Of a stretch of DNA of 61,348 nt, positions 23,908 to 53,017 are shown one piece after another. The notes under the pieces were generated by a model. It saw nothing but the letters and a program-made list of their open reading frames with translations, made no database searches and was not told the DNA's origin. The DNA lies in assembly GCA_010093705.1 (NCBI GenBank), contig MU006111.1, forward strand, positions 263,244 to 324,591, in the 5' to 3' direction. The translations under genes were made by a program, and so were the position numbers. This stretch comes from Patellaria atrata CBS 101060. Lineage: Eukaryota. The first letter of the stretch is position 1, and the number at the start of each line of letters is the position of its first letter.

Positions 23908-24035
23908 TTTAAAAGAAAGGAAAAAGAGTATTATAACTATAAATTATAAAAATATATAAATAATAAGTAAAAAAAAGAAAAGAAAACTATTTAAAAAAAC
24001 TATAAATAAAATAAATAATAATAAGTTATATAACT

Positions 24036-27000
24036 TATAATAATATTATAGATTATTATTTCTTACTTTCTTTTATTAATAATAGTCGCGTTAAGATTCT
24101 ATTATTATATATTTAATATTAATAAATTATATAATTATAACTTCTTCTTTTCTTAACTTAATCTCTTTATACTATAGTTAGGTTATACTAGTTATAATCT
24201 AATTCAATTCTCTATAACCGTTATATTATTATATTAGATTAAGTTCTACTATTATAGCCTTAAAAAGACGATATAATATTCTAACCTAGTACTTAAAAGT
24301 ATTAAGATTAAAGATTATAAGTTTATCCGGTATCTAAAAGTATTAGAATCGATAATAATAAGAGAAACCTAATACTTAAAAGTATTAAGACTAAAGATTA
24401 TAAGTTTATCTAACACTCGAGAGTATTAAGACCGATAATAAGTAAACTATTATAAGATAATTAGACTATTAAAAATAATAATATAGGAAGATATTATAAG
24501 AGATATTAGATTTATAAACCACTTTACTATAAAGTATAATACTAGATTAAAAGGAAAGAGTATTAGATATAACTAGCGCTTCTTAAAAGTCGCGTTAATT
24601 AGCGTACCGATTATAGAGGAAATACTTAAGGAGGACCTTTAAGATATACTATAATAATATAAAAATAAATATAAATAGTAGGAGTTAAAATATAAGATTA
24701 CTCTAAATTAAGAATATATTAATAGTATTAAAAATATTAAATAAGTATTATAAGATAACCTAGATAACTTTATAAAAGAATATTTATAAAGCTTATTATA
24801 ATTAATAGCCCGCGAGAAGTAAATGAAGATATTAGCTAAGATAACTAAATAATACTATAAAGAGATAACGTAGAAGATAGCTATATATAAAGTTAATAAG
24901 GAGATTATAAAGAACCTTTAAAATAAGAATTAGACTTTATATAATTAACTAATATAAGTACGGATTAACTAGAACTAAACTAACCGTACTATAATAGAAG
25001 ATATAATAAGAAGCGCGAGAATCCTAAAAAATAGAAACGATAAATCGAGTAAATTTCCCGACTTATCTATACTAATTAATAGTAAGAATTTAATTTACTA
25101 AATATAAAAAAGTTAGTTAATAGATAAACTCGAGTATAATACCGACTAGTATCTAATAGATAGAGATTAGATAGTATATATTAAGACGAGGATAGATAGA
25201 TAGTTAGTTAACTAGATATATTTATACTTAAAGTTAAAAATAGAAGATAATAAGACTATTATACTTAAAAACCTATTTAGATTTATTCACTAAATTTATA
25301 AAAACTCTAATAAGCGTCTTAAGACTAAAGATAAACTAAGAAAGTTAAATTAAAACTATTTAATAGATTTTATGAAATTCTAGTTAGACTTTATTTATTT
25401 AACTATAGAGATTAAATTATTTAAAGATTAATAGAAAAAAGAGATCTATAAAAAGCTATATAATTCTTTATAATAAATTATAATATTAGATATAATAAAC
25501 GATAATATTAGTTTTAAAGAGTTCTATTAATAAGTAACGCTTTAAGCACGAGGCCTAAAGAAGTAAAGCTAAAAGTTAAAAAAACGATAAAAGAAGTAAT
25601 AGAAACGTAAAATTACTAAAATAACTTTAAATATTACGGTAATAAGTAAAATCACGACTTAATAATTAAATAAAGTTTTAAGTATAGCTACTCCTCTATA
25701 ATAATTAATAGATTAGAGTATTATAATAATTTAAAAGTTCACGGGAAATTACTTTAACTATAGTAAACCGAGGCACCGATCGGCTAATTACCGAGTATAA
25801 AGAAAGATAGCCGAGGTTAAGTCGGCTTAAATAGAGTAAAATAAGTTAAGCTAGGAATTAGAATTAGAAAATAAGAAACCTTAAGTAAAGACTTCACTTT
25901 AGAATTATTAGTAAAAGTATTAAAAGTATTAATAAGCGATCTAATTATAGAGGAACCTTTTACTATACCGTGTCGAGTATTAAGAAATGGAATTATAATA
26001 TAACTTAAGGCTCTAATCGATATAAGAGCCTAAAGATATATCTTTTTAAATAGAAAATAATTACTTATATTAAAATAATAACTAGATATTAAGTTAAAGA
26101 AAATACTATATATTAATATAAAGGGTTTTAATAGCTTAATAGTAGAACTAATCGACGAGATAGTTAAAGCTAATCTTATACTCGTTAATAGACGATAAAA
26201 AACCCTTATCTTAATAACTAATATAAGCCGTACTAATATACTAATTAGAAGAGAGTAATTCTTAAAGATAGATAGTCTATTAGACTATAAATATAATATA
26301 ATCTTCTAGCTATTATAGATTATAGCGATCGAGGACTAGTAATAAGATATTATAATATTAAAGAGAGAATTATAGACTATAATAAATCTAGTTTATTAAG
26401 TCGATATAAAATAGAGAGATAAAGTATTTAATAAACGAGAGGCGTAATATTTAAAAGCTAGGGCTAAATAAAAGGAAAAGTCTATACTATTTAGATAGAA
26501 ATAATCGAGATTATAGAGGTAAGAACTAAATTTAAGTATATAAAAAATAAAAATAGAACTATTAGATATAATAGAAAAAGAGATCTTAAAGCTTTTAGAG
26601 AAATTAAAAGTAGATTAATATATTAATATATTTAAAATAAAGTTAAATATTTATATAATTAGTGCTAAAGATTACTTATAAAATATTTAAAAACTAGATA
26701 TAATTATTAGAGCTATAAGTTTATATAAGATTAATTCTCTAATTTAAGATAGGTTTAAGAAAGACGAAGATTTATTACTAAACGATAAGGAAGGGCTTAA
26801 AGCGATAATACTAGAAAAGCTATTTATAAAGTATTATTATCTTTCTCACGTGTTTTTAAAGTATATATTAGACTAACTACCTCTTTATTAAGAGAGAGTT
26901 AACTATAATATTATACTAGAGTAAGATAATAATCTAGTAACGAGCCCGCTATATAATATACCGATTAAGTATCTTTAGTTAGTAAAGGACTATTTAGAAA

Positions 27001-30000
27001 AATACCTCTAAAAAGAGTTTATCGAGTTAAGCGAGGCACTATATATATCTTTAGTATTATTCGCTAAGAAACCGGGTGATAGTTAAAGATTTTATATAAA
27101 TTACTAAAAACTTAATAGTATTACTAAAAAAGATAAGTACCTATTACCACTTATAGAAAAGATATTAGTCTAGCTATAACGCGTAAAAATATTCACGAAA
27201 CTTAATATATAGTAAGTATTCTACTAAATATAGATAATAAAGTTAGCTAAAAATCTTATTATATTTTAAACCTAATACGACTCTTTTAAATATAAGATAT
27301 TACTATTTAGTCTATATAATAGCCTCGCCTCTTTCTAATAGTTTATTAATAAGGCTTTCTTTAAATATCTAGATAACTTCTATATAACTTATATAGATAA
27401 TATTTTAGTCTATTCTATATACCTAATAGAGTATAAAGCGTATATTATTAAGATGCTAAAAATATTAACTAAAACTAATCTATAGGCTAATATTAAGAAG
27501 AGTAAGTTCTATATAATTAAGATAAAGTTCCTTAAATTTATTATTAATATAGATAGCCTAGTTATAAACCTAAAGAAAATAGAAGTAATCTAGAATTAAT
27601 AACTACTAATAAGCGTTAAAGGTATATAATCTTTTATTAGATTCTATAACTTCTACCGGAAGTTCCTCGATAAGTTTAGACGAGTAATACGGCTATTAAT
27701 AAGCCGTATTAAGAAAGGAGTACCCTAGTAACTACTTAGGTTAAAAGAATATAAGGCCTTTAAGAGAGTAAAATAATTAATACTATTAGATTAAGTGATA
27801 GTATATTATAGCTCTTTACTAGAAACTAGGGTCGAATTAGACTATAATAATAGGGTAATAGCTATAGCTATCTTATAGAAATACGGCGATAAGTGAAGGC
27901 TTATTATCTTCTAGATTAAAACGCTTTTAGAGTCTAAATTAAGATATAAAATCTATAATAAGAAGATACTCGCTATTATAAAAATATTAGTTAAATAGAA
28001 GAGTATACTAGTAGAATTATAGTAAATATTCTTTATTATTATTATTAACCACTAAGCTCTAGAGTACTTTATAACGAAATAGTTACTTAATATACGGTAA
28101 GCTCGTTAGAGCGAGGCCTTAACTAACTTTTATTTTCGAATTAAGTATCGATCTAGAGTAGAGAATATAGTCGCCGACGCTTTATTTTAGAAGTAGGAGG
28201 ATCTTAAGATAGTTAAGAAGAAAGATATCGCTATATAAATTTAAGTACTATTTCACCTATAAATAATAGTGACTATAAGCTATCTCTTTACGAGATCTAG
28301 TTAAGCTTATACTTATACTTTTACTATACTTAAGGGTGCCTTAATTAAGCTCTTAATACCTCCTACTACGATAATAAAATCGATAAGATATATATTTAGA
28401 AAGAAGGAGGATATAATTAAGCTAATTATATTAAACTAGAACTAGATAGGTATTATATCTATAATAATATAATATAGCTATAGTAATTATATTTTAACTA
28501 TCTTTATTATTAACTACTAAGTATAGAGATTAAGTTAAGAAATAATAATATTATAGACCGAATATTTATATATAATAGTCCCGTCTTATTAAGTCTCGGC
28601 CCGATTATCTTCCGTTTAACTAATTAACGCTTAAAGATCTTTTCCGCGTCCGATTTAGTAAAGATCTTTTATAAATAAATTAAACACTTAATATAAAAAA
28701 TATAGGATTAATATTATAATACGTCGTTATAATATCTAATTCGCTCTAGTCCGGCTCGGGAAATCACGGAACTAGAAAAGAGGAAAAAAGAGGACCTAGA
28801 ACTATTATAAACTAGCTAGAACTCGATATAAAGAAGGGCGATTCTAAATTATATAAATAACTAGTCTTAAGGTCTTAAGAAGCGCTAGTAGAGCGGTTAT
28901 TATTAATTAAACTTATTAATAAGATTATTTAAAAGAATAGAATATATAAGTCGCTAGCTCCTTTTTAGAAATAAGCTAAGATAAGAGAAAAGCACTAAAA
29001 TATCCGCGAAAATCTATTACTATAATTTAACTAACTAATAGTACTAGATATTAGTAACCTCCGTATATATCTACTTTAAGATATCTATAATACTCTAATA
29101 ACCGGGTATCTAAGAGTATAGAAAATAAAAGATTTAATTAAAGATTAATATTACTAGCCGGGCCTAATAGCTAATATAGAGAGATACGTACGAAACTATT
29201 ATATATATTATTAGATATATATATTAAGAGATAAAACTCTAGATTTACTAAAATCTTTATTAATTAGAGATAGATATTAATAGTATATAATATTCGACTT
29301 TAAGTTATTTCTAAAGAATAAATATAAATTTAAGATAATCTTTATTATCGTTAATAAACTTAGGAAATAAACTATCTCTATATCTTATAAACGAGATATA
29401 TCCGCTAAATTAGTAGCTAAGCTATATTACGAATATATATAGAGAATATATAATATACCTAAAACGGTAATATTTAATCGAGGACCCTAATTTATCTCGA
29501 TATTTATAGACGAGCTATATAAACTAATAAGAATTAAATAGAAGCTATTTATAGTATATTATTTCTAGATAAATAATAGTATAGAGATTATAAATTAATA
29601 TATTAACTTAAGATTACGCCTCTTTATAAACTATTACTAAGATAATTAGTTAGAATTAATACTAGCCGTAAACTTCGTCTAGATAACGTTAATTTATAAA
29701 TTAATAAGTATCTTATTATATAAATTAGAACTTAAATATAAATTATAAATACACTTTAATTAGTATAAGTGTATTAACCTAAATAATTATAAGACCGTTA
29801 AGAATTATATAAGTCGAGAAGAGATATAGTAGTTTATAAAATAAATCTATAATACTATTAAATAAATTAGAGGGAACTTAGCTTAGATATAAATAACGTA
29901 AGTTAAAGTAGCTAATAAGCACCGTCGAGAGCCGGATTTTAAACCGGGCGACTATATCTTTATTACTTAGAAAGGCTAAACTTTAGATAGACTAAACGTT

Positions 30001-30760
30001 AAACTAGACTACTAAAACGTTAGACTATATAAAATTACTAGTATAAAAGGATATTTCTATATAATAGACCTACTATCTAATATAAAAATATCGAATATAT
30101 TTTATATAGATAGGCTAAGAAAGGTTATTATAGATTTATTTTTAAATTAATAACTAGAACTACCCCTATTAATTAAGATTAACGGGGAACTAAAGTACGA
30201 AGTCGATAAGATATTAACTAGCCGTATCGTATAGAGTTAATTATAATATAAAGTAAGCTAGATAGATTATAATCCTAATAATATATAATATTTAGCCTTA
30301 AATTTTATTAGAGCCCTATATAAGATAAAGAAGTTTTATAATAAAAGATTATTAGACGCTAAGCCTCTAATTCGATTAAATATATAGCTTAAAGCCTATC
30401 GGGCTAATAATCACGAATTAGAACTATATTTAGATAATAATAAAGTTAAGAAAAAAGGTCTAGCTTAAATTTAAAGACGTCGAAAGTGAGTATAAATAAG
30501 ATAAACGTTACTATAGAAATTCGTAACTAGTTAGCGATTTCTACTTTTAGAGGAGAGGATAATATAATAATATTATAGATTATTATTTTTTACTTTCCCT
30601 TATTAATAGTAATCGCGCCGAGATTCTACTACTACGTGCTTAATACTAGTAGATCACGCGATTATAACTTCTTCTTTTCTTAACTTAATCTCTTTATACT
30701 ATAGTTAGATTATACTAGTTATAATTTAATTCGATTCTCTATAACCGCTACGCTATTATA
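24036..30760 (+). mobile_element. Ty3/Gypsy chromovirus A2, full length, containing a B solo LTR
   Basis: 198-bp LTRs at 24036-24233 and 30563-30760; TSD TAACT; PPT AGAGGAGAGGATAA. De-RIP motifs: RT [21 protein letters not shown] (~27054), integrase SDRGPQF (~29473), chromodomain NGELEYEVDKILASR (30181). Domain order PR-RT-RH-INT-CHD. Confidence 0.96.
28460..28731 (-). mobile_element. Family-B solo LTR (272 bp) inside A2 pol
   Basis: Reverse complement of the B1 LTRs; TSD ATATC (28455-28459 / 28732-28736); the site is empty in A1 and A3. Confidence 0.95.
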
Positions 30761-33700
30761 TAACTTAAATATTTAGATATATAAATATTTTAGTTATAAG
30801 AAAATAATTAAATAATTAAATAACTAAATATTATAGCTATAAGTTATAAGAATATATAGATAATAAGTAAAAGAAAAAAAGAAATATTATTTAAAGAAAC
30901 TATAAATAAAATAAATAATAAAGAATTATATAACTAGATAATAATCGCCGGTCGCGTTAATTATTATAAATAACTAACGATTAAAATAATTAAATAATAA
31001 TTATTAATTATATTAATTATTATAAACGATTAATAATTAGAATAACTAAATAATAATTATCGATTATATTAATCGTTATAAATAACTAACGACTAGAATA
31101 ATTAAGATATAAATATATTAAATTAATTATAAAAAATAGAAATATTTAAAAATAATCTTTTCTTTATATATTTAAATTCTTTATAATTATTTTTACTAAT
31201 AATTTTATCTATAAATTAAAATATTATAGTTTTAAATTTAACTTTATTTATTATATTATTTCTATATAATATATTTTATCTTATTATAAATATTATCTAA
31301 AGTTAAGAAGTTAATAAATTATACTATTAACTTAAAATATTTTTATTATATATATCCTATCACTTTACTAAATTTACCTTTATAATTAACTATATTAAAT
31401 AAGAAGTTAGGCGTGTTTCTAAACTTATCTAATTTTATCTTAATAAGTATAAACTCCTATTATAATATTATAATTATTATATAATAAAAAAGTATATAAT
31501 AGACTTAGATATAATATTATTAATTATAATTAATATAAAGATAGATAAAGAATATATTTAAGTATTATATAAATATATTAATAAATTTAAAAATAAAGAG
31601 ATAATTTAAAAATTTAAAAATTAGCTTAAATAATTTATTATATAATTATTATTACTATAAAAGCGGACCGTAAAAGTTAAAAAACGCGCACTATATAATA
31701 GTAAATAAGATAAGTTAAAAGGATTTTTAATCTAGATAAAAATTTATTATAAAAGAATAAAGTTAATAAATAATAGTAAATATATACTTAATATATTAAT
31801 ATATTTTAAAGAAGATACTTTAAAATAGTTTAAATCTATTATATAAGACTATCTTAAGAATAGTGAAGAATATTAAAAAGACGAAATAATAGAAATCTTT
31901 AAATTATTTTTAAAGTTCGAAGAAATACTTAAAAACGTTTTTAAAGAAGTTAACGAATAATAGATAATTAAAAGAAAGCTTTAAGAACTTAAATAAAAAG
32001 AGTTAACTTTAAAGTATATAATTATATTTTAATAGATAATATTAATATTAAATTAGCCTAATAAATCACTAATAATCGCTTTCTATTAAGGCTTAAAGAA
32101 AGAAGTAAAGAATAAGTAAATTTATTATAAAAGACTAATAATTATATAAAATATAATAATTTTAATAGTTAGAATAGATAATAGATTATATAAATATAGA
32201 TAAAAAAAGGGAGGATAAAAGAATATTATAATTAAATATAAAAAGAAAATAATAAAAGCTATAAATAGATAAAATTAAAAAGATCTAATAAATCTTAACT
32301 AATTATAATAGATAAAATAAAAGAAGTTAAAGAAATAATAATAATTTATTTAAAAAGAAAAGAAATACTTTATAAATAAAATATATTTATAATATAAAGA
32401 AATAGAATATTTTAAGAAAAACTACCTATAAAAAATATAATTATTCTCGCGATATAATCGATATATATAACTTAGAGTTATATATCTAATATTACTATTA
32501 TTAGTCTTATTATTAGAAGAGGAAAAGATTAAAGAAACACTATTATTCTATTAAATAAGAATAAATAGATTACTAATATTATTTTTAATAATAGAAAATT
32601 AGCTAGAAAAGAGGACACTTCGATAATATTTAGATTATTAATAATATTAGACGTATAAAAACGTATATACGTATATAGTATTAAAATATCTAGTATAGAA
32701 CTAGAGTTAAAGAATTAAAGTATAAATATCTAATAAATTAAGCTTTATATACTAGATTATAAAGTAATAACGATAGCTTAAATAAGAATTCTAGAATTAG
32801 AAGTTAATTAAATCTAAATTTAATATTAATATAAGTATTAAAGAGTAATAATTAAATCTTATATTAAAAGTAAAAGATTATTTAACCTTTTAATAAATAT
32901 AATATAAAGAAGATAACTACTTATATTATAAATAGTAGAAAATTATAGTAAAATATAAGAATTAAGATTTTATATATATATATTTATCTAAAAACGAGTA
33001 CTAGGTAAAAGAGTATAAAACCCACGAAGATAAAACGAAAATATTTAAAAAGAATTAAGAACTTAAACTATTAATAGATAATTATAGAAAGTATAATAGT
33101 TTTAATTATATAAATAAACTTAAATATAGATAATACTACTAGATATTAATCTATATAAGATATATATATAGTAGTAATATAGAAAGATTATAAATATAGT
33201 ACGGATTATTAATATTATAAAGAATTAAAGAAAAAGTTCTATAAAATAAAAGTGTTTTTATAGAAAATAGAAATACTTAAAAATAGTAGAGAAACTACTA
33301 AATAAACTACTAAATATAACGTAATAAACTTTAGATAATACACGATTAAAGGAATATAATATAATTACTATACCGTGTAAAGATAAAGAGTAAGAATTAA
33401 AAGTTACCTAAATTATAATATAATTATTAAACGAGAATATCGAGAATTAAAGTGTAAGGAATATTATAAAAGTCTATATTATAATTAATATAATAAACTA
33501 TATTAAACTATATATATAAAATTAAATTACTTAATATATAGTTATATAAAAAATTATTAAGCTATTTAAGATAGAAATAATTAAGAAGTATAATTTCTAA
33601 GTTTTTTAAAACTCTATAAAGTAATAATAGAATATTTTAGATAAATATTATTATATATAGTAAAAGAATAATAGCGTTAATCGATAATAATATTACTAAT

Positions 33701-36700
33701 TTATTTATCTTATCCCGATAAATAAAGAAGAAAAGTATATTTTATATAAAACTTAAAAATCTAATCCTATTATAACTAGAAAATAGTAAAGATATAGATT
33801 ATAGATAAGGTTTAATTAACTTTAAAACTATATTAATAAAAATTAATATATAAGAGAAGATAATTATTTAATATATCTTTATAATTAATTTTAAAGATAT
33901 AAATATAATTCTAGAAATAAACTAATTATAAATAATAAACCTAAATATTAATTAAAAGATAAAAAGTATCTAAATTAATTAAAATATTTTATAAAAAGAT
34001 AAAGTTAAATAAATAAAATATACTAGATAAATAAATATTAATATATTTATAAAAGATATTTTATATTATAAGATAATAAAAATCTATAGAAATAAATCTA
34101 ATAATATAGAAATAATATAATTTAAAAAAGTAAATATTAAGAAGATTTCTAAAGAATCTAAAATATCTAAAAAATATAATAAGTTTAAAGATTTATTTAA
34201 AATAGATATAATAATTATACTTTTAAATTACTAGATATAAGATTATAAAATAGTGTTAAAAAAGAGTATAAAACTATAATTTAGTTCTATTTACCTATTA
34301 TTACGAGAATAATATATAGTACTTAAAGAATATATCCGTATTAACTTAAAAAAAGGATATATACGACCTAATAAAAGTTTAATAGTTTTATTAATTCTAT
34401 TTATATTAAAGAAAAATAGTAAATTAAGATTATATATCGATTATAAATAACTAAATAATATTATAATAAAGAATAAATATTTATTACCCTTAATCTTAAA
34501 AATTTAAGATAAATTATAAAAAGTAAATTAGTTTATAAAATTCGATATTTATAAAAGATACTATCGAATCTATATAAAAGAAGATAAAGAATAGAAAATA
34601 GCTATAAAAATAAGACTTAAATTATATAAATATATAGTAATATTATTTAATTTAATTAATACTTTAATAATATTTTAAATAATAATTAATTATATACTAA
34701 AAGAATATTTAGATATATTTATAATTACTTATTTAAATAATATACTAATATATATAAACGGAACGCTTAAAGAGTATAAAGAATATATAAAGAAAATATT
34801 AATAAAACTATAAGAAAAGAGACTTTTAATATATTTAAATAAATATAAATTCTATATTAAAGAAATAGAATTCTTAGACTTTATTATTACTATTAAAGAT
34901 ATATAAGAAGATTTAAAGAAAATAGCTATAATTAAAGATTAATTAATATTAAAGAATATAAAAGATATATAATTATTTTTAAATTTTATAAATTATTATA
35001 AAAAGTTTATTTAAAGATACTTAAAGATAATAACGCCGTTATTAGAATTAATAAAGAAGGAAAATACCTTTATTTAAATAGAAAAAATATAGAAAGTATT
35101 TAATAAATTTAAGAAGAAATTTATTATAATATCTATCTTAATTATATTTAACTTAGAGAAATCGATAATATTAAAAACTAATATATCTAATTATATATTA
35201 GATATATATATAAGTTAGTTAAATAAGAAAAAATAATTATATCTAATAACTTTTTATTTATAGAAATTTATAGCTATAAAGTTAAATTATAATATATATA
35301 ATAAAGAATTATTAGCGATTATCGATATATTTAAATAATAGAGATTATATCTAAAAAAACTTAAATATATTATAAAAGTTTAGTTAGATTATTAAAATTT
35401 AATAAACTTCCTTATAATAAAGAAATTAAATTAAAGATAAATAAAATAAACGGAAATACTTATATTCTTTAACTTTAAAATATTTTATAAACTAAAAGTT
35501 AAAAATAAACTAGTTAATATTATAAATAGAAAATTTAATTATCTAGAAAAAATAAAACTAATATATAATATAGTATTAAAAAAGGAAAATAACGCGATTA
35601 TCTATAATTAATCGAAATTAGCTATAATACTAATAGTTAAATCTATAAGAAAATAATAGATTTATAATATCTATTAAAAAAATAGTATAATAAAGAAGTT
35701 CTAAAAGAGTAATAATTTTAAAGTAATATAAATAACTTAAAGAATATAATTATATAATAGGTTTATATATATATTAATAATATTATAAAAAACTCTTACT
35801 AAAGAAATCTATAAAGCACTAGTATATAATTATTAAGATATTAATAAAATCTTAAAAAGAATCTTAAAGAACTATTATTTCTTAAAAATAAGAGGTATAA
35901 TAAAGTAAATTATCTTAAAATATAATAACTATATATAGAATAAGAGTATAAGATATATATTTTATAAGTAAATATAATATATTAAATTATTAAAATGAGT
36001 ATAAAATTTAATTATAATAAATTTTATCACTAATTTATTAAGATTTATAGATTTAGTAATAAAAGTAAAGTATAATATAATATTAATAATTATTAAATAA
36101 TTAATAAAGTTTACCTATTTTATATTAGTAAAGATAACGATAATAATACTATAAATAATAGTATTAGTATTAAAAGTAATATTAATTAACTATTAAATAT
36201 TTAAAGAAGTTATCTTAAATTAAGATAAACTATTTATATTAATATTTTAATAAACTTTAGTATAAAGTTTAAAGGTAAACTATAAACTATTAATAAGCTT
36301 TTACTTATAAATAGATAATTAAATTAAGAGAATAAATTAATCTTTAAAGTAATACTTATATAACTATATAAATTATTAATAGAATAACTAGATAGAGTTA
36401 CTATTAATAATATAATTTATATATAATAACGCGAAATTTAATATTATAAAGATTTTACTCTTTTATATAAACTATAGTTTTAAACTAGAAGTATATTATA
36501 AGTTAAAAATAGTTTAAAATATTTTATAAGAAATAATATTAAAAGTTAAGTAAATTAAAGAATTATATATATAATTATTATAAGATATAACTTTCTAAAT
36601 AATAAGGGTTATAAAGTATAATAATTAATATAGATCGCTAAAACTAATCTTTAAAAGAGAGAATAAAGTTTATTTACTATAAAAAAAACTTAAAATAAAA

Positions 36701-36998
36701 TAATTAAGTAAGAAACTAAATTATAAGAAAATTAAATCCTTTAAAATTAAATAAATTAAAAAAAGAGTTAATTATAAGTTAAAATTACTTAAAAAAATAA
36801 AGATATATTTAATTTTCTATATATTACTTCTAAAATTAGTATATATTAACGTTAAACTTTAAATATAATCTATAAAACTTAAAAAAGAAGATATTTATAA
36901 AATAGAATATATTCTAGATTTATAATAAATAAACGATTAATAGAAATATTTAATAAAATAAAAAAGTTATAAATATATAAATAATATATAGAAATTAT

Positions 36999-37547
36999 TT
37001 AAGTATTTAATAAATTATAATTAGAAGCTTAAATAGTTTTATCGTTAAAACTAAAAAACTCTAAACTTTTAAAAATAGAGAAATCTAAACTAAATTAACT
37101 AAAAGAAGATACGATAATAAAGAAAGAAAAAATAATTAAAAAAGCTTATTATCTTTTAACTACTCGTTTTAAAGTCTCTAATTTCTTAATAGAACTTAAT
37201 TTATAATAAAATATTTTAATCTCTTTTTAATTAAGAAAGTAAAGCTATTATATTAACTATTTCTTTTAAATAAAAGCCTTATTATAAATGGAGCGAGTTT
37301 AAACGAGTTAATAATAAAACTTAACTTTTAAAGTATCGAGTTTATTCTAATTCTTTTATAATATTACGAGATTATATTTTATATTACGAGTAAGATATTT
37401 AGAATAGAAACTAAAAGAGATATTAATAATATAAAAATAAAAAGAATAATAATAAATAGAATAAAAAGTTAATATAAAATAATTATATAAAGTAATATAA
37501 ATAATATAATATTAATAATAGATTAAATAAGATTTAACTTTTAATAT
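36999..37547 (-). pseudogene. RIP-degraded antisense ORF of C2 (183 codons; Zn2Cys6-like plus coiled coil)
   Basis: Minus-strand frame from ATA (inferred ATG) at 37547. It back-translates to PC-S-T-C-x6-C-x8-C-SE-C-LARGVK-C-DLVVSQKDWDKL...ELSSIEELE. Internal stops are TAA/TAG, as expected from RIP of Gln/Trp/Arg codons. Confidence 0.7.
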
Positions 37548-37770
37548 TTTAAAAGAAAAGGAAAAAAGATATATATAACTTAATAAATAGGCGATATATC
37601 TATTTTATATTTAAGTAAAAGAAATAAACTCTTAAAATAAAAGTTAAGAAAAGAAAGAATAGTATTATAACTATAAATTATAAGAATATATAAATAATAA
37701 ATAAAAGAAAGGAAGAAATATTATTTAAAGAAATTATAAATAAAATAAATAATAAAGAATCACGTAACTA

Positions 37771-37940
37771 AATAATAATCGCCGGTTATATTAATTATTA
37801 TAAATAACTAACGACTAAAATAATTAGATAGTAATCACCGGTTATATTAATTATCGTGAATAACTAATAATTAGAATAATGAAATAATAATTATCGATTA
37901 CGTTAATTATTATAAATAATTAATAATTAGAATAATTAAG
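37771..37940 (+). repeat. 56-bp x3 tandem repeat within the C2-type LTR (also ~30937-31105 and, reversed, ~9400-9570)
   Basis: Units start at 37771, 37827 and 37883. Confidence 0.8.
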
Positions 37941-39489
37941 ATATAAATATACTAAATTAACTATAAAGAATAAAAATATTTAAGAATAATTTTTCTCTTA
38001 TATATTTAGATTTTTTATAGTTATTTTTACTAATAATCTTATCTATAAATTTAAATATTATAGTTTTAAACTTAACTTTATTTATTACGTTATTTCTATA
38101 TAATATATCTTATCTTATTATAAGTGTTATCTAAAGTTAAAGAGTTAATAAATTATATTATTAACTTAAAGTGCCTTTATTATATATATCTTATTATTTT
38201 ACTAAATTTATCTTTATAATTAACTATATTAAATAAGAAACTAGATATATTTCTAAACTTATCTAGTTTTATTTTAATAAATATAAACTCTCGTTATAAT
38301 ATTAAAATAATTAAAAGATATTATATAATTTAAATATTTAGATATATAGATATTTTAATTATAAAAGAATAATTAAATAATTAAATAACTAAAATAATTA
38401 AAGTATAAATAATTAAATTAATTATAAAAAATAGAAATATTTAAGAATAATTTTTTCTTTATATATTTAAATTCTTTATAATTATTCTTATTATTAATTT
38501 TATTTATAAATTTAAATATTATAGTTTTAAATTTAACTTTATTTATTATATTATTTTTATATAATATATCTTATTTTATTATAAATATTATCTAAAGTTA
38601 AGAAGTTAGTAAATTATATCGATAATTTAAAATATTTTTATTATATATATTTTATTATTTTATTAAATCTATCTTTATAGTTAATTATATTAAATAAAAA
38701 GTTAGATATATTTTTAAACTTATTTAATTTTATCTTAATAGATATAAACTTCTATTATAATAAAAAGATATATATAATTTAATAAATAAACGATATATTT
38801 ATTATATATTTAAATAAAAGAAATAAACTCTTAAAATAAAAGTTAAGAAGAAAGAGGATAATATTATAATTATAAATTATAAAAATATATAAATAATAAA
38901 TAAAGGAAAGAAAAAAATATTATTTAAAAAAATTATAAATAAAATAAGTAATAATAAATTATATAATTTAAATATTTAAATATTTAAATATTTTAATTAT
39001 AAAAAATAATTAAATAATTAAATAATTAGAATAATTAAAGAAGAATTATATAATTTAAATATTTAAATATTTAGATATTTTAGTTATAAAGAATAATTAA
39101 ATAATTAAGCGACTAAAATAATTAAAATATAGATAATTAAATTAATTATAAAGAATAAAAATATTTAAAAATAATCTTTTTTTTATATATTTAAATTCTT
39201 TATAATTATTTTTACTATTAATTTTATTTATAAATTTAGATATTATAGTTTTAAAACTTAATTTCACTTATTATATTATTTTTATATAATATATCTTATC
39301 TTATTATAAGTATTACTCGAAATTAAAAAGTTAATAAGTTATATTATTAACTTAAAATATCTTTATTATATATATATTATTACTTTATTAAATCTATTTT
39401 AATAATTAATTATATTAAATAAAAAATTAAATATATTTCTAAATTTATCTAATTTTATTTTAATAAATATAGACTTTTATTATAATAAT

Positions 39490-40365: not shown

Positions 40366-42199
40366 AATATACTTTACTAGTTAATAGAATATATTATTTA
40401 ATAAGATATTTTACTAAGATTAATTAATATTTTTATATAATTATTCTATTATAATAAAATATATTTAAATAAAATTATACTTAAAAACTATTTAAAATAC
40501 TAGTATATTAATATTTTATATAGTTTTAAATATAGTAATTAAAATATATTAATATTATTTATTATTATATTTAATTAGTTTAATTTTAATCGATTTTTTA
40601 TTTTATATTTTTTAACTTTTTAACTATAAACTAAATTTATTAAATCTATAAAATTTCTTTATATATAATATATTTTCGGTAATATTATTATTTTTATTTT
40701 TAATATTAATTTTTTATATAAAGCTTTAAATTCTTCTTTATAAATATAATAATAGAATATATTACTATTTAATATTCTTTAATAAGTTAATTAATTATTT
40801 AGTTAATAAAACTTTATAATTAATATTAAAAAATATTTTATATAAACTTTATCTATTACTTTAACTAGATAATAGTATATAGTGTTTTTAAAGTTTATTA
40901 AAATATTTCTCTATTAACTATATTTAATAAAGTTAAAGTCTTTATAATTAAAAATAATAATATAATATATTTAAAATTATATAATATTAAATTTATAATA
41001 AGAAATTCACTTTTAATATTTTAATTTATAAAGATAAATAATTATATTTTAATATATATTATTAAAAAGTTTTCTTTATTAATATAATAAACTTTATAAT
41101 AAGTGAACTTTTAAATCTTATAATTATATATAATTTTTAAAGAAGAGTAATAGTTTATATTAAATAATTAAAAACGATATAATATATATAATAGTATATA
41201 AAGAATAATAATCTTATTTTTTATATAATATTAATTAAATTTAGATATTATATAGCTACTATAATTATTAAATATAAGTAAATAATAGATTCTCTTTATA
41301 TAAAACTTTATATAATTATTAAAATATTTAATTTATTTAAATTCTAACTTATTTATTATCTAATTATTATTATTAATAATAAATATTTAGTTATTAAATA
41401 GATTTTAATATTAGTTTAATTAATAAAGTTTTTTTAAAAAAATAATAAAAAATGAAATTATCTATTTAATAATATTAATATATTTAATTATTATTAATTA
41501 TTTATAATTATTTAATTATATAAGAATTATTTAGTCTATAATATTAAAGCTTATAATAATTTTTAATATTATAAATATATTTATTATAAATTTAATTTTA
41601 TTAAAATTATAATTATTTTTATCTAAAATATTATATTTCTAGTATATTTTATTTATATATTTATACTACTCGCGAAATATATCTTAATCTTTATATTTTA
41701 TATATTAAAAATAGAATTTTCTATTTTATTTTATTTATAAGTTTAATTAATTATTAATAAAATAATATATTTAATTCTTATTAATAAATATAAAAGAAAA
41801 ATTTTAACTATATATTATAAATAAATAATTTACTATTTATTATATATTAATAATATAAGGCGGAAATTTATATTAATTAAAATTTAAAATCTATTTTATA
41901 AATATTTATTATTTAAATAATTATAGCTTTTATTTTTATAAATTAAATATACTTTAAAATATTATATTATATATATAATAATAAAGAGTAAATTTTAGAA
42001 TATTATATAATTTAATAATCTTTTAAATATTTAAAATTCTATTTTCTTAAAATAATTTAATAGTAATAAATAATTTATTTTCTTATTAAAGCTTTTAAAG
42101 ATTTTATATTAATAATATTATTAATTTTATTAAAAATATAAAGTAATTTTAATAAAATATTCTATTAATTAATATATTCTATTAACTAGTAAAATATAT
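40366..42199 (-). mobile_element. Fot1/pogo element Q, complete (~1.83 kb), inserted just inside the P2 5' end
   Basis: TIR core TTTACTAGTTAATAGAATATATTA at ~40373 and its reverse complement at ~42170-42193. The minus strand de-RIPs to RLLILDGHSSHATPEFDQYC...MPPHTSHRLQPLDVSCYSPLK (~41135-41290). Ends are accurate to +/-3 bp. Confidence 0.88.
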
Positions 42200-42804
42200 T
42201 AATATAAAATTTTTTAATAATAATAAAATTATAAAATTTAATAAAAAGATTAAATAAAGTTTATATTTTAAATTTATAAGAAAGATTAAATTTAAAGTTT
42301 ATAATATATTATTATTATATATAATATATATCTATAAAAGCTTTAATAAAGATATAATTAAATTTTTATTTAAATTAATTATTAATTTAATTATTAGAAA
42401 TTTATTATAATAAAAAAATAAATAATTATTTAATATATTTTTAATTTTAATTTATAAGAATTTATATTTTAATTATATAAAATAGTAAATATAGTAAATA
42501 TAATAAATAAATTATTAAATATATAAAATAAAAAGTAAATAAATAAAAATTAATTTAAAAAATTTATAATATATTTAAATAAATTAAAAATAATTTTTAA
42601 TTAAATAAAAAATTATTAAAGAATATTTTAAAAAGATTTTAAAATAATTAATATATAATTTAAAATTATTAAAAAGATAAAAATTAAATATAATATTTAT
42701 AATAATAATAAATATAATTTTAATAAAATTAACTTTTAAATAAATATAATTAAATTAATAAAAATTATTATAAATATAAAAAAATATATAAAATTTAATC
42801 TTAT

Positions 42805-43434
42805 TATTATAATTATAAAATAAAAAAATAATATTATTAATAAAATAATAATATAAAATATTAAAATAAAATAATTAAAATAAAAATTATATAATAAAAT
42901 TAATAATTAAAGTATTTAAAGATATTAAATATTAAATATTATAAATAAAAAAATTATATAATAAGATTAATAATTAAAATATTTAAAGATATTAAATATT
43001 AAATAATATAAATAAAAAGATTATATAATAAAATTAATAATTAAAATATTTAAAGATATTAAATATAAAATAATATAAATAATATTAAATTAATTATAAA
43101 AAATAAAAATATTTAAAAATTATTTTTCTTTTATATATTTAAATTTTTTATAATTATTTTTACTATTAATTTTATTTATAAATTTAGATATTATAGTTTT
43201 AAATTTAACTTTATTTATTATATTATTTATATATAATATATTTTATTTTATTATAAATATTATTTAAAATTAAGAAATTAAGAAATTATATTATTAATTT
43301 AAAATATCTTTATTATATATATTTTATTATTTTATTAAATTTATCTTAATAGTTAATTATATTAAATAAAAAGTTAAATATATTTTTAAATTTATTTAAT
43401 TTTATTTTAATAAATATAAACTTTAAATATAATA
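42805..43434 (+). mobile_element. Family-C variant solo LTR (630 bp, 67-bp x3 internal repeat) in the P2 transposase
   Basis: The 3' ~350 bp matches the other C LTRs; TSD CTTAT/TTTAT; it interrupts the inferred RPDL|IQPGDREW. Confidence 0.85.
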
Positions 43435-46318
43435 TTTATTTAATTAAATAATTAAAAATAAATTATAATTATTTAAAATATTTATATTATAAAATATATA
43501 ATTTTATTTTTTATTATTTATAAAGATTATATTTATATCTTTATATAATATAAGAAAATAAATATATTATATAATTAAAAGATTTTAATCTTTAAAAATA
43601 ATTAAATAAATAATATATTTAATTTTAAATAATTAAAGTATTTTAATATATATATAAAAGCGTATATAATAAAGATATATTAATTATTTATTCTTAATAA
43701 TTATAAAAATTATCTTAATTAAAATTCTTAAGAATTATTATTTTAAGAATAAAATTTTAATATTTTATATATTTTTTTATTTATTATATATACTTTAATT
43801 ATTTAATATAATTTACTTTTTATTATTAAAATATAAATACTTTTAATATATTTAAGATTTAATATATTTATATATCTTTTATATTAATAAAAAGAATTTT
43901 CTATTAATTTTTAAAAATATATTTTTTAATATATTTATAAAAGAGAATTATTATAAAATTTTTAAAATATTAAATTTTATCTTTATTAATATATAAATAA
44001 TATTAAATTATTTTAAAATATATTTATATATTTTATTAAAATCTTTATTATTATAAATATTATAATAATTAAAAATTTTAAATAATATATTTAAATTATA
44101 ATTATAATTAAAATTTATATAAAATTTTATTATTAAATTATTTATTATAATTTAATTTAAATTTATATAATTTATAAAAGAGATTTAATTAATAATATAT
44201 AAAAATATATTTATAAATATTTATATTATTAAATTTAAAAAATAATTAATAATAATAATTAAAAGAAAAATATATAAATAAAAATAGATTTAATATAATA
44301 ATATAATAAAATATAATAAAGTATTAATAAAAGTAATTATTAAAATATTTATAATATTTATAATATTTAAAAAAGATTTAAAAGAATAATAATTATAAAA
44401 TAAATTAATTAATTATATAATATTATAGAAATTATAAAGAAATTAAATATAATACTTAAATATATAAAAAGAATTTAGAAAAGAATTTTAAATTTAATAT
44501 AAATATAAATTATATAGATTTTTTATTTAATAATAATTAATTTAATATTTTTTATAATAAATTATTTATATTAAGAAATTCTATAATATTTAATAATATA
44601 TAATATTTAATAATATTTTATATTAATTAATTAATATTAATATAAATTAATTAAAATTAAATTAACTATATTATAATAAAAAATATAAGAATTTTAAAAA
44701 TTAAAAATAATAAATTTAATAAATTTTTTAATTTATTTATATTAGTTAATAATAAAAATTTAATTTATTAAATATAAAAAAATTTATTAATAAATAAATT
44801 TAAATATAATATTAATTAATATTTAATAAATAAAAAATAAATAATATATATTAAAATAAAAATAATTAATTAATTAATTAATTAATTAATTAAATATATT
44901 TATATTTAAAGTTAAAAATAGAAAATAATAAAATTTATTATATTTAAAAATTTATTTAAATTTATTTACTAAATTTTAAAAAACTTTAATAAATATTTTA
45001 AAATTAAAGATAAATTAAAAAAGTTAAATTAAAATTATTTAATAAATTTTATAAAATTTTAATTAAATTTTAATTTTTTAATTATAAATATTAAATTATC
45101 TAAAAATTAATAAAAAGAAAAAATTATAAAAAAATTATATAATTTTTTATAATTTTTTATAATATTAAATATAGTAAATAATAATATAAAATATTATAAA
45201 ATATAATATATTATTAAATATTATAGAATTTTTTAATATAAATAATTTATTATAAAAAATATTAAATTAATTATTATTAAATAGAGAATTTATATAATTT
45301 ATATTAATATTAAATTTAAAAGTCTTTTTTAAATTCTTTTTATATATTTAAATATTATATTTAATCTTTTTATAGTTTTTATATTATTATATAAATAATT
45401 AAATTATTTTATAATTATTATTATTTTAAGTTTTCTTTAATTATTAAAATATTATAAATATTTTAATTATTATCTTTATTAATATTTTATTATACTTTAT
45501 TATATTATTATATTAAATTTATTTTTATTTACGCGTTTTTCTTTTAATTATTATTATTAACTACTTTTTAAATTTAATAATATAAATATTTATAAATATA
45601 TTTTTATATATTATGAATTTAATTTCTTTTATAAATTATATAAATTTAAATTAAATTATAATAAATAATTTAATAATAAAATTCTATATAAATTTTAATT
45701 ATAATTTAAATTTAAATATATTATTTAAAATCTTTAATTATTATAATATTTATAATAATATAAATTTTAATAAAATATATAAATATATTTTAAGATAATT
45801 TAATATTATTTATAAATTAATAAAAATAAAACTTAATATTTTAAAAACTTTATAATAGTTTTTTTTATAAATATATTAAAAAATATATTTTTAAAAATTA
45901 ATAAGAAAATCTTTTTATTAATATAAAAAATATACTAATATATTAAATTTTAAATATATTAGAAATATTTATACTTTAATAATAAAAAATAAATTATATT
46001 AAATAATTAAAATATATATAATAAATAAAAAGATATATAAAATTTTAAAATTTTATTCTTTAAATAATAATCTTTAAAATTTTAGTTAAAATAACTTTTA
46101 TAATTATTAAAAATAAATAGTTAATATTCTTTTATAAAATATTTTTTTATATATATATTAAAATACTTTAATTATTTAAAAATAAATATATTATTTATTT
46201 AATTATTTTTAAAGATTAAAATCTTTTAATTATATAATATATTTATCTTTTTATATTATATAAAAATATAAATATAGTTTTTATAAATAATAAAGAGTAA
46301 AATTATATATTTTATAAT

Positions 46319-49300
46319 TATAATAATATTATAAATTATTATTTTTTATTTTCCCTTATTAATAATAGTCGTGTTAAGATTTTACTATTATATATTTAAT
46401 ATTAATAGATTATATAATTATAACTTCTTCTTTTCTTAATTTAATCTTTTTATATTATAGTTAAATTATATTAGTTATAATTTAATTTAATTCTTTATAA
46501 TTATTATATTATTATATTAGATTAAGTTCTATTATTATAATCTTAAAAAGATAATATAATATTTTAATCTAGTATTTAAAAATATTTAAACTAAAGACTA
46601 TAAATTTATTTAGCACCTAAAAGTATTAGAATTAATAATAATAAGAAAAATCTAGTACTTAAAAATATTAAAATTAAAGACTATAAGTTTATCTAGTATT
46701 TAAAAGTATTAAGATCGATAATAATAAGAGAAATCTAATATTTAAAAGTATTAAGATTAAAGATTATAAGTTTATTTAATATTTAAAAGTATTAAAATCG
46801 ATAATAAGTAAATTATTATAAGATAATTAAATTATTAAAAATAATAATACGGGAAAATATTATAAAAGATACTAGATTTATAAATTATTTTACTATAAAA
46901 TATAATATTAGATTAAAAGAGAAAAGTATTAAATATAATTAATACTTTTTAAAAATCGCGTTAGTTAGTATATTAATTATAAAGAAAATACTTAAGAAAA
47001 ACCTTTAAGATATATTATAATAATATAAAAATAAATATAAGCGATAGAAGTTAAAATATAAAATTATTTTAAATTAAGAATATATTAATAATATTAAAGA
47101 TATTAAATAAATATTATAAAATAACTTAAATAATTTTATAGAAAAATATTTATAAAATCTATTATAATTAGTAATTTATAAGAAGTAAATAAAAATATTA
47201 ACTAAAATAATTAGATAATACTATAAAAAGATAATATAAAAGATAACTATATATAAAGCTAATAAAAAGATTATAAAAAATCTTTAAAATAAAAATTAAA
47301 TCTTATATAATTAACTAATATAAATATAGATTAACTAAAATTAAATTAACTATACTATAATAGAAGATATAATAGGAAACACGAGAATCTTAAAAAATAA
47401 AAGCGATAAATTAAATAAGTTTTCTAATTTATTTATATTAATTAATAATAAGAATTTAACTTACTAAATATAAAAAAGCTAGTTAATAGATAAACTTAAA
47501 TATAATATTAATTAATATCTAATAAATAGAGATTAGATAGTATATATTAAGATAAAAATAGATAAATAGTTAATTAATTAAATATATCTATATTTAAAAT
47601 TAAAAACGAAAGATAATAAAACTATTATATTTAAGAATTTATTTAAGTTTATTTACTAAATTTATAAAAACCTTAATAAATGTCTTAAGACTAAAAATAA
47701 GCTAAAAAAATTAAATTAAAACTATTTAATAAATTTTATAAAATTCTAATTAAACTTTATTTATTTAATTATAAAGATTAAATTATCTAAAGATTAATAG
47801 AAAGAAAAGATTTATAAAAAGCTATATAATTCTTTATAATAGATTATAATATTAGATATAATAAATAATAATATTAGTTTTAAAGAGTTCTATTAATAAG
47901 TAACGCTTTAAATATAAAGTTTAAAGAAGTAGAGCTAAAAGTTAAAAAAGCGATAAAAGAAGTAATAGAAATATAAAATTATTAGAGTAACTTTAAATAT
48001 TATAATAATAAGTAAAACTATAATTTAATAATTAAATAAAGTTTTAAGTATAACTATTTCTTTATAATAATTAATAGACTAGAATATTATAATAATTTAA
48101 AAGTTTATAGAAAATTACTTTAACTATAATAAGCTAGAGTACCGATTAGTTAATTACTAAGTATAAAGAAAGATAATCGAGGTTAAATTAGTTTAAATAG
48201 AGTAAAATAAATTAGACTAGAAATTAGAATCGGAAAATAAGAAACTTTAAATAAAGACTTTACTTTAAAATTATTAATAAGAGTATTAAAAGCACTAATA
48301 AATAATTTAATTATAAAGAAACTTTTCACTATATTATATTAAATATTAAGAAATAGAATTATAATATAATTTAGAGTCTTAATTAATATAAAAGTTTAAA
48401 AGTATATTTTTTTAAATAGAAAGTAATTATTTATATTAAAATAATAACTAAATATTAAGTTAAAGAAGATATTATATATTAATATAAAGAGTTTTAATAG
48501 CTTAATAATAGAATTAATTAACGAGATAGTTAAAGCTAATCTCGTACTTATTAATAGATAATAGAAAACCCTTATTTTAATAATTAATATAGACTATACT
48601 AATATATTAATTAGAAGAGAATAATTCTTAAAAATAGATAGTTTATTAAATTATAAATATAATATAATCTTCTAGCTACTATAAGTTATAGCGATTAAGA
48701 ACTAGTAATAAGATATTATAATATTAAAGAGAGAATTATAGACTATAATAAATCTAGTCTATTAAGTCGATATAAAATAAAGAGATAAAGTATTCGATAA
48801 ATAAAAGATATAATATTTAAAGGCTAAAACTAGATAAAAGAAAAAGTCTATACTATTTAAATAGAAATAACCGAGATTATAAAGATAAGAACTAAATTTA
48901 AATATATAAAAAATAAAGATAAAGCTATTAAATATAATAGAAAAAGAGACTTTAAAGCTTTTAAAAAAATTGAAAATAAGTTAATATATTAATATATTTA
49001 GAATAAAGTTAAATATTTATATAGTTAATATTAAAGATTATCTATAAAATACTTAAAGATTAAATATAATTATTAGAGCTATAAGTTTATACGAGATTAA
49101 TTCTTTAATTTAAGATAAATTTAAAAAAGACGAAAATCTATTACTAAATAATAAGGAAAGACTTAAAATAATAATATTAAAAAAGCTATTTATAAAGTAT
49201 TATTATCTCTTTTATATATTCTTAAAATATATATTAGATTAACTATCTTCTTATTAAGAGAAAATTAACTATAATATTATATTAAAGTAAGATAATAATC

Positions 49301-52300
49301 TAGTAATAAGCTTATTATATAATATATTAATCGAGTATCTTTAATTAATAAAAGATTATCTAAAAAAGTATCTTTAAAAAGAGTTTATTAAGTTAAGCGA
49401 GATATTATATATATCTTTAATATTATTCGTTAAGAAGTCGAGTAATAGTTAAAGATTTTATATAAATTATCGAAAATTTAATAGTATTATTAAGAAAGAT
49501 AAGTATTTATTACTATTTATAAAAAAGATATTAGCCCGGCTATAATATATAAAGATATTCACGAAATTTAATATATAATAAATATTTTATTAAATATAAA
49601 TAATAGAGTTAACTAAAAATTTTACTATATTTTAAACCTAGTATAGTTTCTTTAAATATAAGATATTATTATTTAATTTATATAATAGCCCCGCCTCTTT
49701 TTAATAGTTTATTAATAAGACTCTCTTTAAATATTTAAATAACTTTTATATAATCTATATAGATAATATTTTAGTCTATTCTATATATTTAATAAAGTAT
49801 AGAATATACGTTATTAAAATATTAAAAGTATTAGCTAAAGCTAATCTATAAGTTAATATTAAGAAAAATAAGTTTTATATAATTAAAATAAGATTTCTTA
49901 AATTTATTATTAATATAGATAACTTAGTTATAAATTTAGAGAAAATAAAAATAGTCTAAAATTAATAATTATTAATAAATATTAAAAGTATATAATCTTT
50001 TATTAAATTTTATAACTTTTATTAAAAGTTCTTTAATAAGTTTAAATAAGTAATATAACTATTAATAAACTATATTAAGAAAGGAGTATCTTAATAGTTA
50101 TTTAAGTTAAAAGAATATAAAGTTTTTAAAAAAGTAAAATAATTAATATTATTAGATTAAGTAATAACGTATTATAATTCTTTACTAGAAATTAAGGTTA
50201 AATTAAACTATAATAATAAAGTAATAATTATAGCTATTTTATAGAAATATAATAATAAGTGAAAGTTTATCGCCTTCTAAATTAAAATACTTATAAAGTT
50301 TAAATTAAAATATAAGATTTATAATAAAGAGATACTTATTATTATAAAAATATTAACTAAATAGAAAAGTATATTAATAAAATTATAGTAAATACTTTTT
50401 ATTATTATTATTAACTATTAAGCTTTAGAGTATTTTATAATAAAATAGTTACTTAATATATAATAAATTTATTAAAGCGAGATTTTAGTCGATTTTCACT
50501 TCTAAATTAAATATTAATCTAAAGTAGAGAATATAATCGCTAATATTTTATCTCGAAAATAGAAAAATCTTAAGATAGCTAAAAAGAAAGATATCGCTAT
50601 ATAAATTTAAGTACTATTTTACCCGTAAATAGTAATAACTATAAGCTATCTCTTTACGAGATTTAATTAAACTTATATTTATACTTTTATTATATCTAAG
50701 AATATCTTAGTTAAGCTTTTAATATCTTCTATTATAATAATAAAATCGATAAAATATATATTTAAAAAGAAGAAGGATATAATTAAGTTAACTATATTAA
50801 ATTAAAGTTAAGTAAATATTATATCTAATTTACTTTAGTCCGGCCCGGGAAATTATAGAACTAGAAAAGAGGAAAGAAGAGAACCTAAAATTATTATAAA
50901 TTAGTTAGAATCTAGTATAAAGAAGAGCGATTTTAAATTATATAAATAATTAGCTCTAAAGTTTTAAAAAGCGTTAATAAAGCGATTATTATTAATTAAA
51001 CTTATTAATAAGATTATTTAAGAGAATAGAATATATAAATTATTAACCCCTTTTTAGAAGTAAGTTAAAATAAGAGAAAAGTATTAAAATATTTATAAAG
51101 GCTTATTACTATAATTTAACCGGTTAATAATATTAAATATTAATAACCTTTATATATATCTACTTTAAAATATTTATAATACCCTAATAATCGAGTATTT
51201 AAAAGTATAGAAAATAAAAGATCTAGTTAAAGATTAATACTATTAGCTAAGTCTAATAACTAATATAGAGAAATATATACGAAACTATTATATATATTAT
51301 CGGATATATATATTAAGAGATAAAGCTCTAGGCTTACTAAAATCTTTACTAATCGAGGATAGATATTAATAATATATAATATTCGATTTTAAGTTATTTC
51401 TAAAAAATAAATATAAATTTAAGATAATCTTTATTATTATTAATAGATTTAGAAAACGAATTATCTTTATATCTTATAAACGAGATATATCTGTTAAATT
51501 AATAGCTAAACTATATTATAAATATATATAAAGAATATATAATATATTTAAAATAATAATATTTAATTAAAGACTCTAATTTATCTTAATATTTATAAAT
51601 AAGTTATATAAACTAATAAGAGTTAAATAGAAGTTATCTATAGTATATTACTTCTAAATAAATAATAGTATAGAGATTATAAATTAATATATCGACTTAA
51701 GATTATATCTCTTTATAAATTACTATTAAGATAATTAATTAAAATTAATATTAATTATAGACTTCGTCTAGATAATATTAACCTATAAATTAATAGGTAT
51801 CTTACTATATAAATTAGAATTTAAATATAAACTATAAATATACTTTAATTAATATAAGCGTATTAACCTAGATAGTTATAAGACTATTAAAGATTATATA
51901 AATTAAAAAGAGATATAATAGTTTATTAAATAAACTTATAATATTATTAAATAGATTAAAGAGAACTTAGTTTAAATATAAATAATATAAACTAAAGTAA
52001 TTAATAAGTATTATTAAAAGCTAAACTTTAAGTTAAGCGACTATATTTTTATTACTTAGAAGGGCTAGACTTTAAATAAACTAAATATTAAACTAAACTA
52101 TTAAAACACCGAATTATATAAAATTATTAGTATAAAAAGATACTCTTATATAGTAGATTTACTATCTAATATAAAGATATTAAATATATTCTATATAGAT
52201 AAATTAAAAAAGGCTATTATAGATTTATTTCTAAGTTAATAGCTAAAATTATTCTTACTAATTAAAATTAATAGAGAACTAGAGTATAAAGTCGATAAAA

Positions 52301-52849: not shown

Positions 52850-53017
52850 ATAATATAAATATTTTAAATAATTATAATTTACTTTTAATTATTTAATTAA
52901 ATAAGATTAAATCTTATATATCTTTTTATATTTATAATAACTTTTATTAATTTAATTATATTTATTTAGATAATATTAATTAATCTTAAATTATAATATA
53001 TTTAATTATTAAAAATA

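Follow-up and report, generated by a model that had tools for sequence, protein, structure and literature searches.

The window considered here, a 61,348-nucleotide stretch of contig MU006111.1 from Patellaria atrata CBS 101060, combines ordinary genic sequence with a much larger block of transposon remains. About 8 kb is normal gene-bearing DNA (GC 0.47-0.49) with three long intact ORFs (Table 1), in none of which a zinc-cluster motif was found. The other 53 kb consists of nested, extremely AT-rich LTR-retrotransposon debris with a GC content of 0.03-0.26. The lowest values belong to 8000-10000 and 42000-46000, where GC is only 0.03, far under that of the other RIP-mutated elements and extreme even for RIP. 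Two chromovirus families can be told apart in the debris. One of them is less RIP-mutated (GC 0.20-0.26), gives Pfam matches to RVT_1, RT_RNaseH and SH3_Tf2-1, and occupies 13500-20500 on the minus strand and 24000-30900 and approximately 46300-52950 on the plus strand. Its pol ends near its LTR and therefore leaves no room for an additional antisense ORF.

The other, family C, is a RIP-degraded Ty3/gypsy chromovirus, as the original prediction had proposed, and is represented by three homologous copies termed C1, C2 and C3. The pol frame of C2 matches Pfam RT_RNaseH_2 and RT_RNaseH despite its many stops, and a search with it returned 23 pol homologs, with Ty3/gypsy pol proteins among the matches. 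The C-terminus of pol aligns with a Tf2-type protein carrying a Pfam chromo domain (P0006; PF00385), the alignment covering the end of the integrase and the chromodomain of that protein. An LTR pair and a polypurine tract complete the element. The RIP index, (CpA+TpG)/(ApC+GpT), is 0.06 in the element compared with 1.08 in the genic flank, and the 7.6-kb copy C2 retains 23 CpA+TpG and 84 CpG. RIP at CpA/TpG is essentially at saturation in this element, and an ancestral TGT codon is consequently expected to read TAT today. An apparent fourth copy at 42530-42760 was rejected because its ORF region fails to align. Beyond the 3' LTR of C2, further LTR pieces follow head to tail (38374-39486): 38374-38761 is a partial LTR, and a nearly complete one begins at 38762. 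Such an arrangement points to LTRs in tandem or on their own, or to a nested insertion.

Table 1. Positions, in window coordinates, of the family-C copies, their parts, the antisense frame and the genes of the flank.
Feature	Positions	Strand	Basis and remarks
Long intact ORF, 741 codons	531-2756	-	normal-GC flank, up to the edge of the RIP block
Long intact ORF, 442 codons	4602-5930	+	normal-GC flank, up to the edge of the RIP block
Long intact ORF, 441 codons	6384-7709	-	normal-GC flank, up to the edge of the RIP block
Copy C1 with the region	22948-24056	+	homologous copy
Putative antisense frame in C1	23437-23907	-	motif from 23823 downward, 6/6 TAT; 54-nt insertion
5' LTR of C2	30735-31661	+	approximate ends; aligned to 37663-38497, 83% identity
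pol of C2, RT to likely end	34478-37081	+	heavily RIP-mutated, stops read through
Chromodomain at the C-terminus of pol	36887-37060	+	BLASTP of 36524-37081 against P0006, E=3e-8
Putative antisense ORF of C2, 133 codons	37149-37547	-	translation and codon table; 15 RIP-type stops
Candidate Zn2Cys6-like motif, six TAT codons X2-X6-X8-X2-X6	37374-37463	-	frame scan and codon table
Polypurine tract	37551-37568	+	sequence reading; 3' LTR adjoins directly
3' LTR of C2	37569-38497	+	approximate ends; LTR pair alignment
Copy C3 with the region	55941-54075	inverted	homologous copy
Putative antisense frame in C3	54774-55190	+	5/6 TAT, sixth is TAA

In family C, a gap of about 470 nt separates the pol stop, put near 37079 from a less-mutated loose end with some uncertainty in its placement, from the polypurine tract. 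The strand opposite to gag-pol carries the frame of interest in this gap, between the end of the chromodomain and the 3' LTR, where it had been predicted. In C2 it starts with ATA (possibly a former ATG) within twelve bases of the polypurine tract and ends at a double TAA (37151-37146) common to all copies. The frame therefore fills the gap, running from the edge of the polypurine tract to the double TAA. It is present in all three copies with 13-22 stops per copy, and some of the stops show their origin in RIP, as at codon 128, where C2 still has CGA while C1 and C3 have TAA. The 'CT-rich leader' that had been placed next to the 3' LTR proves to be the complement of the polypurine tract itself.

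Counted from 37463 downward, the minus-strand translation has Tyr at relative positions 0, 3, 10, 19, 22 and 29, which is the spacing X2-X6-X8-X2-X6 of the original prediction. All six codons are TAT in C2 and C1 and five are in C3. The Zn(II)2Cys6 spacing is CX2CX6CX5-12CX2CX6-8C (Pfam PF00172/PROSITE PS00463), so the question is whether the six Tyr codons are former Cys codons or a product of composition. A regular-expression search of all six frames of the whole window finds the strict pattern Y-x2-Y-x6-Y-x8-Y-x2-Y-x6-Y at 37463(-) and 23823(-) only. The generic Zn2Cys6 spacing in Tyr is less selective: a six-frame scan also places it at 8879(+) and 41634(+), two unrelated sites, and two further overlapping matches lie just upstream at the motif locus. 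Tyr accounts for 10-11% of codons in every frame of the window and for 27% locally. Random placement of Tyr yields the generic spacing in 8.8% of trials when 17 Tyr are spread over 64 codons, and in 3.7% when 24 are spread over 133. Once the five Tyr codons that resolve to CGT in less-mutated copies (see below) are taken out, random placement gives the spacing with a chance of 0.9%. The spacing had also been taken as conserved between copies, which is correct in that 17 of the 18 motif codons are TAT; this share is no higher than background, 29 of 33 other Tyr codons in residues 1-63 being kept as well. The spacing pattern is thus real, yet not beyond chance on window data alone. The openness of the frame carries no weight, because RIP can make any stop from a sense codon and because the motif sits in a purine-rich stretch beside the polypurine tract where every frame is open.

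Is there any sign of past coding in the gap? A single frame is kept in the three copies over 400-470 nt, with indels of only 21 and 54 nt, both multiples of three. The longer one is an insertion in C1 (23553-23606, read on the minus strand) made of two 27-nt units in the variable middle of the putative ORF; the shorter one is a stretch that C1 and C3 carry and C2 does not, near the site of the C1 insertion. The copies differ by more than transitions, as had been stated, with 7.3-9.5% transversions in the ORF region. Between C2 and C3 the value is 9.5%, and the 90-nt motif window alone contains 12 transversions; the LTR stands at 7.0%, pol at 2.2% and the chromodomain with its tail at 0.8%. The rate of change in the ORF region is thus no lower than in the LTR. 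Codons 76-106, the segment following the motif, where a dimerising coiled coil would be expected and into which both indels fall, are unconserved and contain stops beyond what RIP explains; the last 27 codons are the only well-kept part of the antisense frame. A very conserved block, 37061-37230, comprises the pol tail, the double TAA and these last 27 codons, and 37061-37148 has no transversion between C2 and C3. This block could be a cis-acting element instead of coding sequence.

Statistics that RIP leaves unchanged give a mixed picture. In purine/pyrimidine coding, the purine fraction of the motif window by codon position is 0.37/0.50/0.10 (p=0.003), a periodicity partly built in because the window was picked for its TAT codons. 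Periodicity of this strength occurs in none of 112 LTR windows, in 0.6-1.1% of other RIP-mutated windows and in 2.2% of pol windows, and fits a Lys/Glu/Arg/Gln-rich reading of the sense strand equally well. Transversion columns among the three copies distribute over the codon positions as 24:13:28, with position 2 depleted (one-sided p=0.013, post hoc). The pol control is enriched at the third position instead (22:25:46); the gap has one depleted phase, so the two patterns differ. A codon-class score trained on pol in purine/pyrimidine space ranks the antisense frame worst of six (LLR -24.9), although the power of this score is poor and wrong-frame windows reach +24. Position 1 of the antisense codons is only 47% purine.

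The most direct evidence comes from less-mutated copies in the contigs of one public sample (runs X1 and X2), which contain many family-C fragments of all mutation grades. These fragments differ from the window mainly by A>G and T>C. Their loose-end consensus strings were decoded by hand against the window; 40 of the 242 differing places are listed, and among the motif codons they cover 1, 2, 5 and 6. In one contig, the antisense codons at relative positions 0-8 read TAT-TCC-GCT-TAT-CGT-CGT-TTC-TCT-CGT. The non-motif Tyr codons at relative positions 4, 5 and 8 are therefore former Arg codons, which bears out the original prediction. Motif codons 1 and 2 are still TAT although three CGT close by are intact; they were therefore not Arg, and Cys, Tyr or His are the residues possible there; a TGT in this piece would have been converted, because no CpA or TpG remains in it. 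Further upstream, Tyr codons 7 and 11 read CGT in less-mutated contigs, codon 10 reads CAT and codon 14 TAC.

Motif codon 5 adds a constraint of another kind. From this codon onward the reading is TGT-CTC-GCT in six contigs, four from X1 and two from X2, which excludes Tyr and His at this position and leaves Cys or Arg. Motif codon 6 is still TAT in the less-mutated contigs. Taking the codon readings together, Cys is the sole residue that fits both the constraints on codons 1 and 2 and that on codon 5, with the caveat that TGT may be a step in the decay of CGT to TAT, since relative codon 25 is found in all three states (CGT in C2, TGT in an X1 contig, TAT in C1 and C3). Of the six ancestral Cys that had been predicted, codon 5 is seen as TGT, while codons 1, 2 and 6 read TAT in these contigs as well. 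Behind Cys2, one less-mutated contig has Arg (CGT) in the first, second and fifth places. The PROSITE zinc-cluster pattern wants Lys, Arg, His or Gln at the fourth position after Cys2; there, all copies have TCT or TTT (Ser/Phe).

Searches for relatives of the putative protein returned nothing. The raw antisense translations of the three copies, with stops written as X, gave 3216 word-sharing candidates and no match at E<=10; a three-copy profile found no match in 1.84 billion representatives. These null results say little, because RIP hides all but near-identical intact relatives. Chromoviruses were also collected through pol, giving 3 IMG/VR and 80 metagenome loci, of which 44 have at least 700 nt downstream of pol. 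None of the 83, including those 44, has a Zn2Cys6-spaced Cys motif antisense downstream of pol, and they share no common antisense ORF family. The loci had, however, been chosen by an ECNYEIY pattern where family C apparently read ERNYDIY, so they represent another lineage and have no bearing on family C. One of them (L063) carries, upstream of pol at 1475-1720 on the plus strand, a 160-codon ORF built from repeats that are rich in Cys and Gly and some 24-31 residues long. When the gap was compared with the fetched loci by BLAST in purine/pyrimidine coding, the only matches were to purine tracts. In five AT-rich metagenomic chromoviruses such a tract directly follows the pol match (L025:7236-7312, L033:7064-7140, L051:7226-7302, L068:7225-7301 and L070:4256-4332). 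These tracts are 87% like window positions 37399-37475 in this coding, probably a low-complexity similarity.

The reading preferred here, with a probability of roughly 0.45, is that family C once had an antisense gene with a Zn2Cys6-like domain. In the ancestor of the family, a small added gene of about 130 codons would have lain opposite to gag-pol and taken up the whole interval from the pol stop to the polypurine tract. The product of this gene would have begun with a basic N-terminal tail, followed by six Cys in Zn(II)2Cys6 spacing with Arg between Cys2 and Cys3, a variable linker and a conserved C-terminal segment rich in Lys, Glu and Leu. RIP would then have changed every TGT to TAT and made Tyr codons or stops out of codons for Arg and Gln, leaving the gene dead in all three copies. 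The frame, its spacing, the Arg codons and one TGT can be read from the DNA; the other five Cys would be ancestral states, and the putative protein might have bound zinc, dimerised and acted as a small nuclear DNA-binding regulator. Its transcription may have started from an antisense promoter in or adjoining the 3' LTR, by analogy with the antisense accessory genes of LTR elements and retroviruses.

Could the gap instead be a non-coding spacer? A purine-rich tract would give, on its complement, YRY triplets (former CGT, CAT, TAT and TGT), and these may have fallen into a Zn2Cys6-like spacing by chance. We regard this as a serious possibility, though one that falls short of even odds. It would account for the two other occurrences of the generic spacing in the window and for its appearance in 4-9% of simulations at local Tyr density, and it suits the fastest-evolving part of the element, the last rank of the antisense frame in the pol-trained test, the purine-rich tracts directly after pol in the five metagenomic loci and the lack of homologs of the antisense frame in searches that RIP had blunted. 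It does not anticipate that motif and non-motif Tyr codons part ways in the less-mutated contigs, with TGT at codon 5, nor that both indels are multiples of three. The periodicity of the motif, in the top 1% or so of windows, also speaks against a plain spacer, as does the length of the gap, which is long beside the distances of 72 and 246 nt from the pol stop to the contig end in two of the loci (L001 and L002).

Two further explanations accept that the region once coded for something, or derives from something that did. In the one, the sense strand would be responsible for the three-base periodicity, either as a Lys/Glu/Arg-rich extension of pol reached by a frameshift or as a separate ORF. 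Charged peptides do appear in the sense frames of the less-mutated loose end, NNR codons agree with the purine-ending habit of pol (position 3 is 61% purine), and the mirror sense frame scores best in the codon-class test, at an unremarkable LLR of +5.7. The frame in question differs from that of pol, however, the first two thirds of the gap would encode a peptide rich in Phe, Leu, Ser and Tyr, and the transversions lack the enrichment at one position, the third, that pol shows, so that sense-strand coding appears very improbable. In the other, the six Cys codons would be real but part of a piece of a host zinc-cluster transcription factor that was captured, has no function and is carried along passively. 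High divergence and an unconserved linker would suit such a passenger, and PMC7264820 treats the transduction of genes by LTR elements. Yet the sequence is present in all three diverged copies, its start and end coincide exactly with the gap between pol and the polypurine tract, and its frame is kept across the indels; we consider capture of this kind an outside chance.

GAL4-type Zn(II)2Cys6 factors (PF00172) would have the same CX2CX6CX8CX2CX6C spacing if the TAT codons of family C were TGT. The likeness extends to Arg right after Cys2, to a Gly/Ser-hydrophobic-Lys run before Cys6 and to the location near the N-terminus. On the other side, TGT is seen for one of the six Cys codons and no basic residue stands in fourth place behind Cys2. 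The putative protein would also differ from Zn(II)2Cys6 transcription factors in its size of about 130 residues, the lack of a regulatory domain and its being encoded by a retrotransposon. A second parallel is offered by HBZ of HTLV-1, a bZIP factor whose antisense transcription starts from the 3' LTR and which is a dimerising regulator of the DNA-binding type. HBZ belongs to an animal retrovirus, has a bZIP instead of a zinc cluster and shares no sequence relation with the family-C frame, and it serves as an analogy only. The antisense promoter of the HTLV 3' LTR is mentioned in PMC7264820 as well.

In plants it is relatively common for an antisense ORF to lie between pol and the 3' LTR, as in the elements Grande, RIRE2, Retand and PvRetro13, and one occurs likewise in Boty of Botrytis cinerea and Sclerotinia sclerotiorum, the gene brtn (Zhao et al., 2011, Virology 417:248, as cited in PMC7264820). 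In the passages of PMC7264820 that treat these ORFs, a clear likeness to known proteins is described for none of them. The plant genes, termed aORF-3R (gene23 of maize Grande and those of rice RIRE2, Silene Retand and Phaseolus PvRetro13), have the same position and orientation as the family-C frame, are present in most copies of their families and are suspected of a nuclear or regulatory role, with a promoter upstream of the aORF in Grande (PMC7264820). They differ in belonging to non-chromovirus lineages, and the same account reports no zinc-cluster domain in them. They are moreover conserved like the other proteins of their elements (PMC7264820), whereas the family-C frame is not, its transversions of 7.3-9.5% standing against 2.2% in pol.

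Boty brtn, by its description, is likewise an antisense gene between pol and the 3' LTR, in this case of a fungal chromovirus. It is placed within the BcGypsy1 subfamily in PMC8365987, the text supplements of which do not mention it, and PMC4227169 presents an element resembling Boty that has brtn and a pol with chromodomain. In Monilinia, a transcript resembles truncated Pol and BRTN alike (PMC5987419), and for certain fungal elements a figure legend in PMC2864245 refers to an 'additional ORF with unknown function'. The Boty copies behind BRTN are intact and transcribed, whereas the family-C copies are all RIP-dead, and the putative zinc-cluster gene of family C may or may not be related to brtn. 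Full-text searches that paired Zn2Cys6 or antisense ORF with retrotransposon terms returned no paper. The original prediction had left open whether such a gene had been described: an antisense gene at this spot has been, in brtn, while a zinc-cluster domain in one does not figure in the account of PMC7264820. With brtn and the plant aORFs as precedents, the antisense architecture is not new; a zinc-cluster domain in an antisense gene of an LTR element would be new, unless BRTN has one.

Should the motif be due to chance, the gap is an ordinary spacer without wider meaning. A broader proposal, which we put forward as tentative and with some doubt, is that a fungal chromovirus lineage encodes its own GAL4-type zinc-cluster DNA-binding protein, antisense beside the 3' LTR, as a fungal counterpart of HBZ. 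Such a putative protein could act on the LTR of the element or on host silencing. Accessory genes of LTR retrotransposons are rare and their function is mostly not known, and the antisense ORFs of plants and Boty are presented without recognised domains (PMC7264820). If the antisense gene of family C is real, a zinc-cluster domain in it would offer a first mechanism open to testing, namely binding to specific sequences, of which the LTR may be one, and would mean that transcription factors of a class specific to fungi can form part of fungal elements. Genes erased by RIP are still approachable through less-mutated copies in raw sequencing data together with RIP-invariant purine/pyrimidine statistics.
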